From NCBI GenBank assembly GCA_023653095.1, contig JAMNXP010000003.1:39503-103502 (forward strand): a stretch of DNA of 64,000 nt, read 5' to 3'. This DNA comes from Bacteroidia bacterium (GTDB taxonomy: Bacteria > Bacteroidota > Bacteroidia > NS11-12g > UBA955). How positions within the stretch are numbered: position 1 is the first letter of the stretch; each line of letters opens with the position of its first letter. The translations under genes and the position numbers were made by a program. Positions 20,901-57,923 of this stretch are shown piece after piece. The notes under the pieces were generated by a model, which was not told where the DNA came from, did not search any database, and saw nothing but the letters and a program-made list of their open reading frames with translations.

Positions 20901-21026
20901 GGCAATCAGCGGTCAGCTATCAGCGGTCAGCGGTCAGCGGTCAGCCGTCAGCCGTCAGCAATCGGCGGTCAGCCGTCAGCCAAGGACCAAGGACCAAAGA
21001 CCAAAGACCAAAATCCAAAATTAAAT
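20901..21026. repeat. heptanucleotide tandem array A (18 in-phase 7-mers)
   Basis: ggcaatc agcggtc agctatc agcggtc agcggtc agcggtc agccgtc agccgtc agcaatc ggcggtc agccgtc agccaag gaccaag gaccaaa gaccaaa gaccaaa atccaaa attaaat. The array starts 3 nt after the fhs stop. Confidence 0.95.
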
Positions 21027-21029
21027 CCT

Positions 21030-21065
21030 AAAAAAAAGCCCGGTGAAATTCACCGGGCTTTTTCA
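21030..21065. terminator. bidirectional rho-independent terminator (fhs / giant T9SS gene)
   Basis: A-run, then GCCCGGTGA-aat-TCACCGGGC, then a T-run. It sits between the convergent gene ends at 20897 and 21069. Confidence 0.8.
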
Positions 21066-21068
21066 GTA

Positions 21069-48613: not shown

Positions 48614-49612
48614 ATGAAAATCTTATATTGCATCCAAGCTACAGGGAACGGACATATTTCAAGAGCCATAGAATTACTCCCATACTTAATTAAAAACGCC
48701 CAAGTTGACGTTTTCTTGAGCGGTGCAAATTCATCTTTAAGACCTGATTTACCTATCAAATTCAGAAGTGACGGTTTGTCATTGTTTTATAAGCCAGAAG
48801 GAAATCTACATTGGTGGAAAATCATCAAACAAATCAACCCCTTTCGCTTGGTAAGAGACGCAATCAAATTACCTGTTAAAGAGTATGATCACGTTATTGT
48901 AGATTATGAATTCATTGGTGCTTTGGCTTGCAAACTCAGAGGGAAATCCTTTTTGCACATTGGCAATCAAGCCTCTTTTGCCTCTAAGTTGATTCCACGT
49001 CCCCCTAAAAGACATGCCGCCTCTGAATGGGTATTGAAAAATTATTGCGCATCAAAATTCAATATAGGTTATCACTATAACAGTTACGAAGATTGGATTT
49101 TACCACCCACCATCAAACAGCATTTTTGGGATGCTACAACCACACAGAATGAACATGTGACGGTCTATTTACCGCACATTTCAAAGCGCGAAATCAATCG
49201 TTATTTTTATGCCCTAAGAGGGGTTGAATTCCACATTTTCCATCCTGAAGTAAAAGAGTATGAAAAAGATTTTAACGTTCATTGGTTCCCCATCGATGGT
49301 GAAAAATTTGACCAAGATTTAATCACATCAAAAGGAGTGATCACTGCTGGTGGATTTCAAACAACTGCCGAGGCTTTGTTTCTGGGGAAGCCTTTACTTA
49401 TCATACCCATACCCAAACAGTACGAACAATGGTGCAACGCTGAAGCTCTTAAAGAGTTTGATGTTGAAGTCGTAGACACTCTGAACTTACACTTTGAGAA
49501 GACCTTTAGACGGTGGTTTAAAAAGTCCGAACCAGCTAAAACAAAACCTAAATTCATCAAGACCGAAGATATTGTAAATCGCATACTTGCAGAGTTGCAA
49601 AGCATGCCCTAA
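48614..49612 (+). CDS. glycosyltransferase-family protein (GT-B, TIGR00661-like)
   Basis: 332 aa. [18 protein letters not shown] at the N-terminus and the C-terminal [20 protein letters not shown] pattern. Confidence 0.5.
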
Positions 49613-49644
49613 ACCACGTATCTTTGCCCCAATTTTTCAAAGCC

Positions 49645-50754
49645 ATGATAATCGGGGTACCTAAAGAAATCAAGAACAACGAAAACCGCGTTGCAGTAAC
49701 TCCTGCTGGAGTAAGTGAATTTGTAAAACATGGACACAAAGTTTATGTTCAATCAACCGCCGGATTAGGCAGTGGTTTCTCTGACGAGGAATACACCAAC
49801 GCCGGGGCTAACCTACTCCCAACCATAGAGGAAGTATACGGCATCGCCGAAATGATTGTTAAGGTTAAAGAACCCATTGAATTGGAATATTCTTTAATGC
49901 GTGCCGGACAATTATTGTTCACGTATTTCCATTTCGCGTCTTACGAGCCTTTGACCCACGCAATGATCAAAAGCAGAGCTATCTGCTTGGCTTATGAAAC
50001 AGTTGAAGTGAACAGAACCTTACCCTTGTTGATTCCAATGAGTGAAGTTGCTGGTCGTATGAGTATCCAAGAAGGCGCAAAATACCTTGAAAAACCAATG
50101 GGCGGACGCGGTATCCTTTTGGGTGGCGTACCTGGTGTTAAACCTGCAAATGTGGTAGTTTTAGGTGGTGGTGTTGTTGGAACTCAAGCTGCTAAAATGG
50201 CCGCAGGCCTTGGCGCAGATGTAACCATCATGGACCTTAGCCTTAACCGTTTACGTCAACTTGACGATATCATGCCCGCTAACGTAAAGACTCAATACAG
50301 CAATGATTACAACATTCGCGAAGCGGTAAAAACCGCAGATCTAGTCATTGGTGGCGTATTGATTCCAGGTGCAAAAGCTCCAAAATTAATCACCAAAGAC
50401 ATGCTTTCAACCATGCGTCCTGGATCTGTCATTGTTGACGTTGCCATTGACCAAGGAGGATGCTTTGAAACCTCAAAACCAACCACTCACGCTGAACCAA
50501 CCTATGTGGTTGACGGTGTAGTTCACTACTGTGTAGCAAACATGCCTGGCGCAGTTCCATATACATCTACCCTTGCCCTAACAAACGCAACCCTTCCCTA
50601 CGCTATTCAATTGGCAAACAAAGGTTGGAAACAAGCTTGCGCTGACAGCGCTGACCTCCGCCTCGGACTCAACGTTGTTGAAGGCAAAGTAGTGTACGAA
50701 GGCGTTAGCCAAGCATTCAACCTTCCTTATACGCCTGTTAGCGAGGTGTTGTAA
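49645..50754 (+). CDS. ald: alanine dehydrogenase
   Basis: Start set at [26 protein letters not shown]-binding motif [15 protein letters not shown]. Confidence 0.9.
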
Positions 50755-50908
50755 TCAGCCGTCAGCGATTAACAGTCAGTCGTCAGCCGTAAGCTAATAG
50801 CCGTCGGCCGAAAGCCGTTATCCGTTAGCTGACCACCGATAACCGATAACCGATAACCGATCACCGATAACCGATAACCGATCACCGATAACCGATCACC
50901 GACCACCG
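50755..50908. repeat. heptanucleotide tandem array B (22 in-phase 7-mers)
   Basis: tcagccg tcagcga ttaacag tcagtcg tcagccg taagcta atagccg tcggccg aaagccg ttatccg ttagctg accaccg ataaccg ataaccg ataaccg atcaccg ataaccg ataaccg atcaccg ataaccg atcaccg accaccg. The array begins at the nt after the ald stop and ends 12 nt before the next ATG. Confidence 0.95.
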
Positions 50909-50920
50909 TTAACAAAACAA

Positions 50921-51685
50921 ATGCTTAACTCAAAAGTATACGGCGAACAGCATCATGAAACCGTGATCATTTTACACGGGGTATTTGGTATGCTCGATAA
51001 TTGGCATTTAACCGCTAAAGCCTTGTCCGAAAAATACAGGGTTATAACATACGATGCCCGTAATCACGGCAAATCATTTCATGATGCTGATTGCTCTTAT
51101 CAAGCAATGGCCAACGATTTGAACCAGCTGATGATTCAATTCAACATTGACGAAGCCTATATTTTGGCCCACTCAATGGGTGGAAAAACCGCTATGCTTT
51201 TCGCAGATCAACATCCCCAAAAAGTAAAAAAACTGTTGGTGGTTGACATTGCTCCCAAAGCCTATCACGCCGGACATCTTGAATACATTCAAGCATTTAA
51301 AAGCATAGACTTTAGCAAAATCCAATCTCGAAAAGAGGCCGATGATGCATTCCTGCCGTATGCTCCCATTATGGGAGTGAGACAATTTTTATTGAAAAAT
51401 CTGGAAGCTAAACCTGAAGGGGGCTACCAACTAAAAATCAATATTGTAGCCATTGAAAATCATTATTATGACATCATAGGCGGACTGAATTTTCAAAACA
51501 TTTTCGATAAAGAAACCCATTTTATTTTGGGAGAAAAAAGCGGGTATCTCAAAGAAACAGACAAACCCTTTATAGAAGAGCATTTTCCTCTTTCAAGATA
51601 CCACACCATCAGCAAGGCTGGGCATTGGGTACATGCTGACAATCCCGAAGAATTTCTGAAAGTAGTAAAAGAAATTATTAATTAA
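50921..51685 (+). CDS. alpha/beta-fold hydrolase
   Basis: 254 aa. HGVFGMLDNW oxyanion region, nucleophile elbow AHSMGGK and C-terminal GHWVH. Confidence 0.8.
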   Translation: MLNSKVYGEQHHETVIILHGVFGMLDNWHLTAKALSEKYRVITYDARNHGKSFHDADCSYQAMANDLNQLMIQFNIDEAYILAHSMGGKTAMLFADQHPQKVKKLLVVDIAPKAYHAGHLEYIQAFKSIDFSKIQSRKEADDAFLPYAPIMGVRQFLLKNLEAKPEGGYQLKINIVAIENHYYDIIGGLNFQNIFDKETHFILGEKSGYLKETDKPFIEEHFPLSRYHTISKAGHWVHADNPEEFLKVVKEIIN

Positions 51686-51696
51686 CTTCGCCTTTC

Positions 51697-52491
51697 ATGA
51701 AAAATGGGTGGCTTCTTATTCTCCTTCTGTCGAGCTTCATTAATTTGAAGGCCCAAAAGGATTTTACTTCAACTGCTGATTCTACCCGTAAGAAGGATGA
51801 AGAAAAAAGCTGGATTCTCATGCATGTGGCAGCAACCTACAGCGTGAACGCTGGTGACTGGGCCGATAGATATCCTGCTTACACCGCTTTGCCGCTCAGA
51901 TTGGAATATTACCACAAAAACAAATACACTCTTGGAGCAGATTTTAGTTTTTATCTCGGTTCGCAAGTAAACTCAGCCGGTATGTTCCCAGATATGACTG
52001 ATGAAGACGGCTCACTCAGAGACATTAATGGCTATCCGGCCGTGATCAGATATTACATGAGGGGTTGGTCTTCAAGAGCCTACGCTCTAAAAATCATTCC
52101 CTTGAATTACAATGCCGCCAAAGAAGCTCGTTGGTCATTGCAATTGGGAGGAGGTGTTGGATACACGAGGCATTACACCAAATTCAACTTCGATCTAGAC
52201 ATGGTTCCGCAATTGGAAGAGGAATATTTAGGGGGATATGACAGGCTCACGGCTGGCACTCAACTTTTTGAACAAATCAGATTTCAGTATTTAAACAATT
52301 CTATGGTTTCGCTTTCTGCGGGATTTGAATTCCTACAGGGTTTCACAAAACATCAACGGGCATACGACTTCACCACCCGAAGTCCTCAAAGCCAAGGCTA
52401 CTTTGATCTAGGTATTGGAGCCTTTATTGGTGTCATCATTCCTATAAAACTGGGGCAAATTTCTGCATCGGAAGAATACTACATAGATTAA
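51697..52491 (+). CDS. hypothetical secreted / outer-membrane protein
   Basis: 264 aa. Signal peptide MKNGWLLILLLSSFINLKAQ, with aromatic-rich beta-like segments. Confidence 0.4.
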   Translation: MKNGWLLILLLSSFINLKAQKDFTSTADSTRKKDEEKSWILMHVAATYSVNAGDWADRYPAYTALPLRLEYYHKNKYTLGADFSFYLGSQVNSAGMFPDMTDEDGSLRDINGYPAVIRYYMRGWSSRAYALKIIPLNYNAAKEARWSLQLGGGVGYTRHYTKFNFDLDMVPQLEEEYLGGYDRLTAGTQLFEQIRFQYLNNSMVSLSAGFEFLQGFTKHQRAYDFTTRSPQSQGYFDLGIGAFIGVIIPIKLGQISASEEYYID

Positions 52492-53769
52492 ATGATTCGG
52501 TGGATTTACAATATCCTCGCTCAGATAATTGATGCCGCTATCAATTTGGCCTCTTTGGCATTGCCAAAAACCAAACTTGCTAGAATGTTTAGGGGACGAA
52601 AATCCAGCTTGATTGACATTCAAAATATAGATTCCACCCAGCCCAGAATTTGGTTTCACGCCGCTTCTCTGGGCGAATTCGAAATGGCCCTTCCCTTGAT
52701 TCAGACCATGAATCAGGAATACCATTGTTGTATCACTTTTTTCTCGCCATCGGGGTTTGAAAACGCCAAGATTCCACAGAATTGTTCCAAATATTACATC
52801 CAAAACGACAGTCCCCAAAAGTCCAATCAGTGGCTAGACGAACTGAATCCCCAGGCGGTAATTTTTGTTAAATACGAATTTTGGATCAATCATATTCGGG
52901 CATTAAACAAAAGAAATATTCCTTTCTTTTATTGGAACATTCTTCTGAGAAAAAATCATTTTTTAGGTTCTTTCTGGGGACATGAATGGCGCTTAGAACT
53001 TAAAAATTGCAAAAAATTCTACGCCCAAAATTTGGAAACAGTGCAACTGCTGAAACAGTGGATCTCACCAAAAACCAACACTGAAATCTTGGGAGATGCC
53101 CGTTATTTAAGGGCTGCCCAACTTCGAAATTCGGTACTAGAAATTCCTGCAGCAATCTGGCAATTCTGCCAAAACTCCGATGTGCTCATTATTGGGTCTT
53201 GTTGGGATGAAGAAGTGCAAGTTCTAAAAGAAACGCTGTCTCAATTGGAGCATGCTGAGTCATTTAGATACATAGTTGCACCTCACGATTTGAGCGAAAC
53301 GCGCATCCAAAATATCATCTCAACGCTCTCTGGCACTGACAAACATATATTCAGATTTTCGGAAATCAAAGACTCTTCCGCGGTCAATGTCCCCCGAAAA
53401 GAAATAATTGAAATTGGCATTTTAGACTCCATGGGCTGGCTATCAAGGGTATATCATTGCTGTGATTTGGCCCTCGTTGGAGGAGCTTTTGGCGCGGGAC
53501 TTCACAACATTATTGAGGCACAAGCAGCGGGTTGTTTTGTTTTATTTGGACCCAAAACACAGAAGTTCCCAGAGGCACAACAATCTGTAGACGAGGGTGT
53601 GGCTTTGCAAGGAAGCTCGATCAATGAACTTGCTAAAAAACTACAAGACACCATGACGAGAAGTGATTTTCATGAATTGAGGCATCAAGTGAATGAATAT
53701 TTCAATAAAAACATTCCGGCAATCAGTCAGGTAAAAAATGAAATTACTGCTCACATACTGACAAAATGA
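52492..53769 (+). CDS. waaA: 3-deoxy-D-manno-octulosonic acid (Kdo) transferase
   Basis: 425 aa. The WFHAASLGEFEMALPLI motif is typical of KdtA/WaaA. There is a C-terminal GT-B half. Confidence 0.8.
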   Translation: MIRWIYNILAQIIDAAINLASLALPKTKLARMFRGRKSSLIDIQNIDSTQPRIWFHAASLGEFEMALPLIQTMNQEYHCCITFFSPSGFENAKIPQNCSKYYIQNDSPQKSNQWLDELNPQAVIFVKYEFWINHIRALNKRNIPFFYWNILLRKNHFLGSFWGHEWRLELKNCKKFYAQNLETVQLLKQWISPKTNTEILGDARYLRAAQLRNSVLEIPAAIWQFCQNSDVLIIGSCWDEEVQVLKETLSQLEHAESFRYIVAPHDLSETRIQNIISTLSGTDKHIFRFSEIKDSSAVNVPRKEIIEIGILDSMGWLSRVYHCCDLALVGGAFGAGLHNIIEAQAAGCFVLFGPKTQKFPEAQQSVDEGVALQGSSINELAKKLQDTMTRSDFHELRHQVNEYFNKNIPAISQVKNEITAHILTK

Positions 53770-57706: not shown

Positions 57707-57923
57707 GATTTGGTCTTTGGTCTTTGGTCTTTGGTCTTTGGTCTTTGGTCCTTGGCTGGGAGCTGAACAGCTTTGCTGTTGCTTGGAGCCTTCGGCGCTG
57801 CTGAAAGCTGAAAGCTGTCCGCTGCCCGCTGTCCGCTGACGGCTGACGGCTGACGGCTGTCCGCTGACCGCTGACGGCTGACGGCTGATCACCGATCACC
57901 GATCACCGGTCACCGGTCACCAG
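57707..57923. repeat. heptanucleotide tandem array C (~31 in-phase 7-mers, composite)
   Basis: gatttgg (tctttgg)x5 tccttgg, then 7 degenerate units, then aagctga aagctgt ccgctgc ccgctgt ccgctga (cggctga)x2 cggctgt ccgctga ccgctga (cggctga)x2 (tcaccga)x2 (tcaccgg)x2 tcaccag. The array starts 1 nt after the UbiA-family stop. It runs into the last codons and the stop (57910-57912) of the convergent DUF3109 gene. Confidence 0.95.

Follow-up and report, generated by a model that had tools for sequence, protein, structure and literature searches.

The window, i.e., the whole stretch of 64,000 nucleotides that was analysed, carries on its plus strand an alanine dehydrogenase gene (ald) and an alpha/beta hydrolase gene (hyd), with orf264 and a kdtA-like glycosyltransferase gene downstream (Table 1). 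The listed ald reading frame begins at TTG 49624; judging from the sequence, this codon probably lies too far upstream and the likely true start is ATG 49645. The ald stop codon, TAA, occupies positions 50752-50754, and a spacer of 166 nt extends from it to the hyd ATG at 50921. Nearly all of this spacer is taken up by a tandem array of heptamers, here called array B, and two further arrays, A and C, lie elsewhere in the window. The gap between hyd and orf264 is 11 nt, and orf264 and kdtA abut. Such packing suggests that hyd, orf264 and kdtA belong to the same transcription unit. The genome that holds the window (G000) is assembled to 2.04 Mb in 14 contigs, with 40% GC and 75% completeness, and the closest relatives of its Ald protein are found in uncultured Bacteroidia/Bacteroidota MAGs.

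Table 1. Position and basis of the features in the window
Feature	Position	Strand	Basis
Array A: TCAGCSG units, then CCAAAGA units	20906..21019	+	TRF, sequence
Candidate Bacteroidota -7 box TATCTTTG upstream of ald	49619..49626	+	motif match only
ald, alanine dehydrogenase	49624..50754	+	Pfam AlaDh_PNT_N, E 8e-46; AlaDh_PNT_C, E 7e-94
Array B, first half: 11 degenerate TCAGCCG-type heptamers	50755..50831	+	sequence; TRF score 31
Array B, second half: 11 ACCACCG/ATAACCG/ATCACCG units (GATCACC family)	50832..50908	+	TRF score 116/130
Non-repeat A-rich leader TTAACAAAACAA, 12 nt, before hyd ATG	50909..50920	+	sequence; comparison with G013
hyd, alpha/beta hydrolase, 254 aa	50921..51685	+	Pfam Abhydrolase_1, E 8e-30
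orf264 and kdtA-like glycosyltransferase, tightly packed	51697..53769	+	ORF layout, Pfam
Array C: TTTGGTC, GCTGACS and GATCACC blocks, between convergent genes	57709..57921	+	TRF, sequence

The array and its transcriptional setting

Array B consists of 22 in-phase heptamers (50755-50908) followed by 12 non-repeat, A-rich nucleotides. It starts at the first base 3' of the ald stop codon and ends 12 nt 5' of the hyd ATG. Units 1-11 read TCAGCCG, TCAGCGA, TTAACAG, TCAGTCG, TCAGCCG, TAAGCTA, ATAGCCG, TCGGCCG, AAAGCCG, TTATCCG and TTAGCTG; units 12-22 read ACCACCG, ATAACCG (three times), ATCACCG, ATAACCG (twice), ATCACCG, ATAACCG, ATCACCG and ACCACCG. CCG occupies unit positions 5-7 in 17 of the 22 units; counting CGA and CTG as well raises this to 19. 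The pattern CCG-N4-CCG-N4-CCG-N4-CCG has ten matches in the window, nine of which fall in array B (50801-50908), and none in 100 shuffles.

Taken alone, the first half is a weak repeat (TRF 50755-50794, 63% matches, score 31). It is accepted as part of the array because it keeps the phase of the second half and resembles the genome-wide TCAGCSG family. For the second half, TRF gives a period of 7 with 11.3 copies over 50835-50913 (87% matches, score 116), and a super-period of 21 nt fits the same stretch better (3.8 copies, 93%, score 130). On the mRNA strand this half is C/A-rich and adjoins the downstream start codon; on the minus strand it reads GGTTATC/GGTGATC, one mismatch away from a published heptamer type, GGGNATC. 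An earlier, sequence-only reading of the window had described 22 in-phase 7-mers that begin right after the ald stop and end 12 nt short of the ATG, with CCG (or CTG/CGA) at positions 5-7 of almost every unit and with TCAGCCG-type units akin to those of array A in the same orientation. These descriptions are borne out; array A does carry TCAGCGG/TCAGCCG units in that orientation. Its 'clean alternation' of ATAACCG and ATCACCG is approximately right; more exactly, the second half is the 21-nt higher-order repeat.

The array is real. A Logan search for contigs encoding Hyd or Ald gave two contigs, which come from run SRR23907157 and each end inside array B; the search with Ald taken from ATG 49645 found no contig. 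These independent short-read contigs agree letter for letter with the first 106 nt of the spacer and with its last 54 nt, and they break within the clean ATAACCG/ATCACCG core, so the exact copy number of the core comes from one assembly.

The predicted RNA fold of array B (-33.5 kcal/mol, against -31.2 +/- 3.6 in shuffles; z = -0.63) has no structure beyond chance, and no ORF in the ald-hyd spacer reaches 60 aa. The 12-nt leader TTAACAAAACAA that separates the array from hyd has a similar A-rich counterpart of 13 nt, TTAAACAAGACAA, in a sister genome (G013), and would act as the translation-initiation region. A CRISPR, a riboswitch and an sRNA were also considered for the array and were rejected, as it has neither spacers nor an Rfam match; across the whole window, Rfam gave no match at gathering score.

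Upstream of ald, the box TATCTTTG lies 19 nt before ATG 49645, and a TTG at 49593 lies 23 nt before the box. Together, these motifs make a plausible Bacteroidota promoter of ald. Past this box, no other Bacteroidota -7 box (TAnnTTTG) is present on the plus strand between 49619 and 55866. A scan of the spacer (50755-50920) for sigma-70-like promoters found none, and a scan of the same positions for terminator-like elements (GC-rich hairpin with T-run) was likewise negative. The genes keep the order GT1-ald-hyd-orf264-kdtA throughout the genus and beyond it. Co-transcription of ald, hyd, orf264 and kdtA through array B would fit these observations best, because the spacer has neither a promoter nor a terminator, the gene order is conserved, ald and hyd overlap as TAATG in some relatives, and the downstream genes are tightly packed. 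An operon is nevertheless not guaranteed, since other relatives have a terminator between ald and hyd. The array had also been proposed to serve as a promoter or spacer element in which a change of unit number would alter spacing. This proposal is without support: no promoter elements lie within or flanking array B, and there are no flanking half-sites whose spacing could vary.

A polar family of arrays in the genome

Array B is one of many. TRF on the whole of G000 returned 372 period-7 rows, far above every other period, which merge to 145-188 loci and cover about 17 kb of the 2.04 Mb. The dominant unit families, counted in TRF rows, are GATCACC (58), TCAGCCG/TCAGCGG (56) and CCAAAGA (45), together with AGAGTTT and CAGCTCT. 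Most arrays are intergenic, and many begin 0-10 nt downstream of a stop codon. According to crude longest-ORF gene calls, on which the polarity statistics below are based as well, 67 loci lie between tandem genes, 55 between convergent genes and 11 between divergent genes. Block copy numbers range from 2.6 to 41 across loci, with no visible preference for four units. The arrays are spread very unevenly: in contig C1 of G000, a stretch of about 280 kb (~48.4-330 kb) has no period-7 array with a score of 36 or more, whereas contigs such as C3 have one every ~4 kb. A canonical bidirectional terminator, distinct from the repeats, comes after array A (window 21027-21066) and is made up of an A-run, GCCCGGTGAAATTCACCGGGC and a T-run. 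The arrays are thus not terminator substitutes everywhere.

The arrays are strongly polar. Of 77 intergenic outer blocks, 76 have their G/T-rich strand directed away from the closest gene, whichever way that gene is oriented. Blocks of the two commonest families keep one orientation inside a locus: on the top strand, GGTGATC/TCTTTGG stands at the left edge and GATCACC/CCAAAGA at the right edge, and this is equally so for ++, -- and +- gene pairs. Plus-oriented GATCACC blocks fall in the right third of their locus in 35 of 37 cases; minus-oriented ones fall on the left (relative position below 0.4) in 28 of 30. A composite of the form [GGTGATC]n[TCAGCSG]n[CCAAAGA]n is found at 20 loci or more, in both orientations, and array C is this recurrent three-block composite in reverse orientation. 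Array B obeys the rule too, having its GATCACC-type block at the right edge in plus orientation. Its G-richer strand (CGGTGAT/CGGTTAT) is antisense and ends 12 nt upstream of the hyd ATG.

Two functional explanations were tried on the arrays as a class and rejected. The supply of stop codons was considered as the cause of polarity, since GGTGATC has TGA in all frames, but the stop-free TTTGGTC unit obeys the rule as well. A Rho-utilisation (rut) function, prompted by the C-rich, G-poor and unstructured second half of array B, is unlikely in general, because downstream of stop codons the strand of the arrays that enters the mRNA is the G/U-rich one.

The vocabulary of units is lineage-specific within the genus. 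Three consecutive GATCACC units, with at most two mismatches, match 336 times in G000, 289 times in G013, twice in G037 and not at all in the other 24 genus genomes. The matches are strand-balanced, as a symmetric polarity predicts. Many heptamer arrays also occur in another sister genome, G005, where they consist of different units and are again G-rich at the left and C-rich at the right. TRF found no heptamer arrays in two 20-kb samples of G018 and none in one 20-kb sample of a genome from outside the family. In G037 (L116, G037:C14:48792-52097), a fourth genus genome with heptamer arrays, yet another vocabulary, namely GTAGATG (18 copies), CGGGTAT, GGTTCCA and TACCCTC, surrounds a PF05635 gene.

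The ald-hyd junction in the genus

Four states of the junction are found within the genus: an overlap, a terminator, a hairpin array and an unstructured array. Loci L002 and L087 have no array; there, the stop codon of ald and the start codon of hyd overlap as TAATG. L003 and L086, also free of an array, have a hairpin and T-run terminator between the two genes, and other genus members have ald-hyd spacers of 11-76 nt without heptamers.

Arrays stand at this site in close sisters of G000. The junction of G013, whose Ald is 99.2% identical at the amino acid level, has 17 in-phase units between near-identical flanks. The difference from the array of G000 is exactly five units, and the unit sequence is partly different. 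With GGTGATC units on the left and ACCACCG/ATCACCG units on the right, the G013 array gives a strong two-arm RNA hairpin; the spacer folds at -60.8 kcal/mol as against -34.6 +/- 3.6 in shuffles (z = -7.4). In G005 (Ald 96.5% identical), 385 nt of different heptamers lie between ald and hyd, comprising GGGTATC/GGGTACC (19 copies), GTCACYA (12) and CCAGGTA/CCATAGA (13), and this spacer is self-complementary (z = -4.3). Array length, whose comparison across isolates the sequence-only reading had put forward, is polymorphic among relatives (22 units in G000, 17 in G013, 385 nt in G005). While the flanking proteins of the array-bearing sister species are 96-99% identical, the sequence, length and structure of the array are all unconserved. 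Rewriting of the array between such flanks, with fold z-scores of -0.6, -7.4 and -4.3, argues for a lack of constraint and not for a tuned function.

In G005 (L083:2299-2345), the position of the G000 hyd start codon is taken by AGA, and in-frame ATGs are present only at 2308 and 2329, both within heptamer-derived sequence. Because the only in-frame ATGs are array-derived, the G005 array seems, from its sequence, to supply the hyd start codon together with a short N-terminal extension. At the other edge, Ald ends in ...SEVL* in array-bearing genomes and in ...SEVLN* in the TAATG-overlap relatives (window 50740-50754 compared with L002 1530-1546 and L087 1940-1955). The final ald codon and its stop may have given way to the array boundary.

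Related repeats and the interpretation of array B

Among known repeats, array B is closest to the GGGNATC type. Rehm et al. 2015 (PMC4692102) described GGGAATC heptamers in Xanthomonas and GGGGA(C/T)T heptamers in Nostoc PCC 7120, whose G-rich strand is sense within 50 bp after a stop codon and antisense within 50 bp before a start codon, for any ORF orientation. These heptamers are under-represented between divergent ORFs, occur singly or as inverted pairs, and are found at the same sites in sister species with differing lengths and sequences; they have no known function (PMC4692102). Their units contain a G-tract that could fold into a G-quadruplex, and four units are the preferred number. 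The arrays of G000 are likewise dispersed tandem heptamers over-represented in non-coding DNA, follow the same polarity rule, are scarce between divergent genes (11 loci, against 55 convergent and 67 tandem), and, at ald-hyd, recur at one site in sister species with variable length and sequence. The GGGTATC unit of the G005 junction is an exact GGGNATC and makes this the sole ald-hyd ortholog that fits the motif. The polarity rule is therefore already published, and what differs here is that units free of G-tracts obey it. The G000 units GGTGATC and GGTTATC lack the G3 tract, and since polarity holds without G-triplets, G-quadruplexes cannot be its reason. The G000 arrays differ further in showing no four-unit preference, in being mosaics of several unit families in recurrent order, and in their host, a small-genome uncultured member of the Bacteroidota.

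Other published heptamers fit less closely. MacGregor 2015 (PMC4679880) reported TAACTGA direct repeats in Beggiatoaceae, cyanobacteria and five Bacteroidetes, as well as long arrays and 'other heptamer direct repeats' in Gramella and Aequorivita that are absent at the same site in close relatives. As with these repeats, the heptamers of G000 are intergenic and close to start or stop codons. However, the TAACTGA unit itself is not used in G000, which has only TCAG-containing relatives of it, and the TAACTGA repeats mostly have 2-6 copies just upstream of starts in a single orientation, unlike the arrays described here. According to Mrazek et al. 2007, as relayed by PMC4679880, long simple sequence repeats (SSRs) with units of 5-11 nt are far longer than expected by chance, have heptanucleotides as their commonest class, and are proposed to arise by polymerase slippage. 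Long SSR is, however, a statistical category and not a system, and it leaves the shared vocabularies and the polarity of G000 unexplained.

Resemblance to REP/BIME elements is partial. The arrays of G000 are dispersed and 3' or intercistronic, and the G013 ortholog of array B is a long hairpin in an operon-like row of genes. Array B, on the other hand, does not fold into a hairpin (z = -0.63), tandem heptamers make up the arms in place of a fixed palindrome of ~35 nt, and the RAYT/Y1 transposase (PF01797) was not found in G000, G013 or G005. The STRR sequences of heterocystous cyanobacteria, associated with Mazel et al. 1990, are reportedly heptanucleotide tandem arrays with copies of the order of 100 dispersed through each genome. 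Their unit sets are lineage-specific and their function is unexplained. The STRR2 unit, which we take to be TTGGTCA, would be identical at six of seven positions to the TTGGTCT register of the G000 unit TTTGGTC. The 100 or more dispersed loci of G000 (145-188) recall the STRR, but the host is a member of the Bacteroidia/Bacteroidota and not a heterocystous cyanobacterium; to our knowledge, its units are not those of STRR1-3, and neither polarity nor a mosaic order has been described for the STRR.

Array B is probably a fast-evolving, non-coding heptanucleotide SSR array of the STRR / long-SSR kind, one of a genome-wide, lineage-specific, polar family, which is neutral or selfish, is co-transcribed with its neighbours and fills an intercistronic gap. 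On this account, arrays would have filled a formerly tiny ald-hyd junction in a recent subclade of the genus. Turnover would take place through the gain and loss of whole 7-nt units by slipped-strand mispairing, point mutation of units and re-expansion of variant units, and selection would exclude arrays from coding sequence and from the last ~12 nt before a start codon. An ald-hyd-orf264-kdtA mRNA would contain array B as an untranslated stretch between two cistrons. The main effect would be passive: in place of the translational coupling through TAATG, hyd would be initiated independently, on a leader that is C/A-rich, poor in G and unstructured. The five-unit difference between G000 and G013, the phase kept across degenerate units in both species and the 21-nt super-period fit such a combination of slippage, mutation and re-expansion, and slippage is accordingly put forward as the likely mechanism of change. 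The neutrality of array B is suggested by its lack of conservation, which is the one ground for it. Local slippage alone leaves the shared unit vocabularies, the three-block composite and the near-perfect polarity unexplained. An additional process, whether copying, homogenising or selective, must act on the arrays.

A less likely reading is that array B is the decayed, gene-less derivative of a transposase-free, hairpin-armed cassette that encloses a PF05635 gene. Such a cassette would have a G/T-rich 5' arm and a C/A-rich 3' arm in inverted arrangement, and solo arrays would be its MITE-like copies or footprints. At ald-hyd, G013 would retain both arms, and in G000 the left arm would be gone and the right arm would have grown. 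Indeed, the only intact PF05635 gene of G000 (C3:33767-34072) lies between CGGTGGT (11.6 copies) on its left and GATCACC (17.3 copies) on its right, the latter starting at the stop codon of the gene. Inverted bracketing, with the G/T-rich array to the left and the C/A-rich one to the right, is found in all five checked genomes with an intact gene (G000, G013, G005, G018 and G007), in each genome's own repeat vocabulary and whichever strand carries the gene, and G037 fits in part. Since the gene is bracketed by inverted arrays, solo arrays might be gene-less derivatives of the cassette, and the two-arm hairpin of the G013 spacer (z = -7.4) agrees with this.

Several observations nevertheless weigh against the derivation of array B from a cassette. 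Array B contains neither the gene nor a remnant of it. PF05635 is present in 18 of the 27 genus genomes, and array-poor genomes such as G018 are among them, so the gene does not account for the burst of solo arrays; its presence was also tried as a correlate of array richness and rejected on the same counts. Two-ended loci mostly have arms of different families (21 hetero, 6 homo), and arms of different families cannot pair. A truncated copy of the gene in G000 has no flanking arrays, and no transposase has been identified. A RAYT/Y1 transposase was rejected as the mobiliser, PF01797 being absent from the three array-rich genomes G000 (75% complete), G013 (93%) and G005 (99%). The bracketed gene of G000 (G000:C3:33582-34227; L111 1316-1961) encodes a 23S-rRNA-IVS/Avd-like four-helix bundle of 117 aa, and further bracketed loci in the genus are L113, L114, L117 and L119. 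The arrays at PF05635 have a period of 7 in G000, G013 and G005, and of 10 in G018 and G007. A wider form of the idea can be offered with equally low confidence: the arrays may be the arms or footprints of a cross-phylum, transposase-free, PF05635-linked cassette system of fixed chirality. Since polarity holds for units that cannot form G-quadruplexes, the published G-quadruplex rationale would be wrong, and a dedicated mechanism of array synthesis or spread, with polar growth against gene boundaries, would operate.

That the array is a cis-element, either a series of sites in a 7-nt register for a protein that binds single-stranded or duplex nucleic acid, or a selected, unstructured C/A-rich leader that sets hyd expression relative to that of ald, is unlikely. 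We know of no protein that binds the heptamers. Before start codons it is always the C/A-rich strand that enters the mRNA, and after stop codons the G/U-rich strand (also PMC4692102). The second half of array B, poor in G and free of structure, ends at a conserved A-rich leader of 12 nt. Regulatory roles have also been proposed for heptamer repeats at start codons in Beggiatoaceae (PMC4679880) and Nostoc (bioRxiv 10.1101/2022.06.06.494920). Yet the junction differs completely in sequence, length and structure among three sister species with near-identical flanks, in G013 a hairpin ties up the leader arm, and most of the genus has no array at ald-hyd at all. The neighbours are, moreover, ordinary housekeeping genes.

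A phase-variable promoter or spacer, in which the number of units would switch hyd on and off, is very improbable. The length of the tandem repeat does differ between relatives, and TTTTGAT heptad repeats are reported for the ctxAB promoter (bioRxiv 10.1101/2021.05.14.444153). No -33/-7 or -35/-10 elements, however, occur in or flanking array B, the ~150 similar arrays lie mostly at the 3' ends of genes, and the neighbouring genes are metabolic and do not encode surface proteins or antigens. In a contingency locus, the repeat stands within an ORF or between promoter elements; array B stands between a stop codon and a start codon, and being outside coding sequence, it cannot act as a frameshift switch.

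It is hardly credible that array B is an assembly artefact, i.e., a chimeric or collapsed join in the MAG: at least eight contig ends of the 14-contig assembly fall in heptamer arrays and the independent short-read assembly is broken inside array B, but both edges are reproduced exactly in the independent contigs, the orthologous array of G013 shares the right end and the flanks, and the uncertainty is limited to the copy number of the clean core. Contig ends of G000 that lie in arrays include C12:97939-98179, C13:13304-13442, C5:31291-31670, C7:121687-121904, C9:115544-115745, C4:152-205 and C8:348-543. The heptamer arrays are assembly breakpoints, and their copy numbers may be under-called. 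As they interrupt short-read assemblies, they are relevant to the quality of MAGs.

The gap between ald and the hydrolase gene is an instance of a genome-wide class of repeats and not a special regulatory device. In this small freshwater Bacteroidota genome, about 1% of the DNA consists of polar heptamer arrays. Their orientation rule is nearly free of exceptions for units that have no G-tracts, which argues against an explanation by G-quadruplexes. The four states of the junction within one genus provide a natural series in which the effects of arrays on operon expression can be tested.
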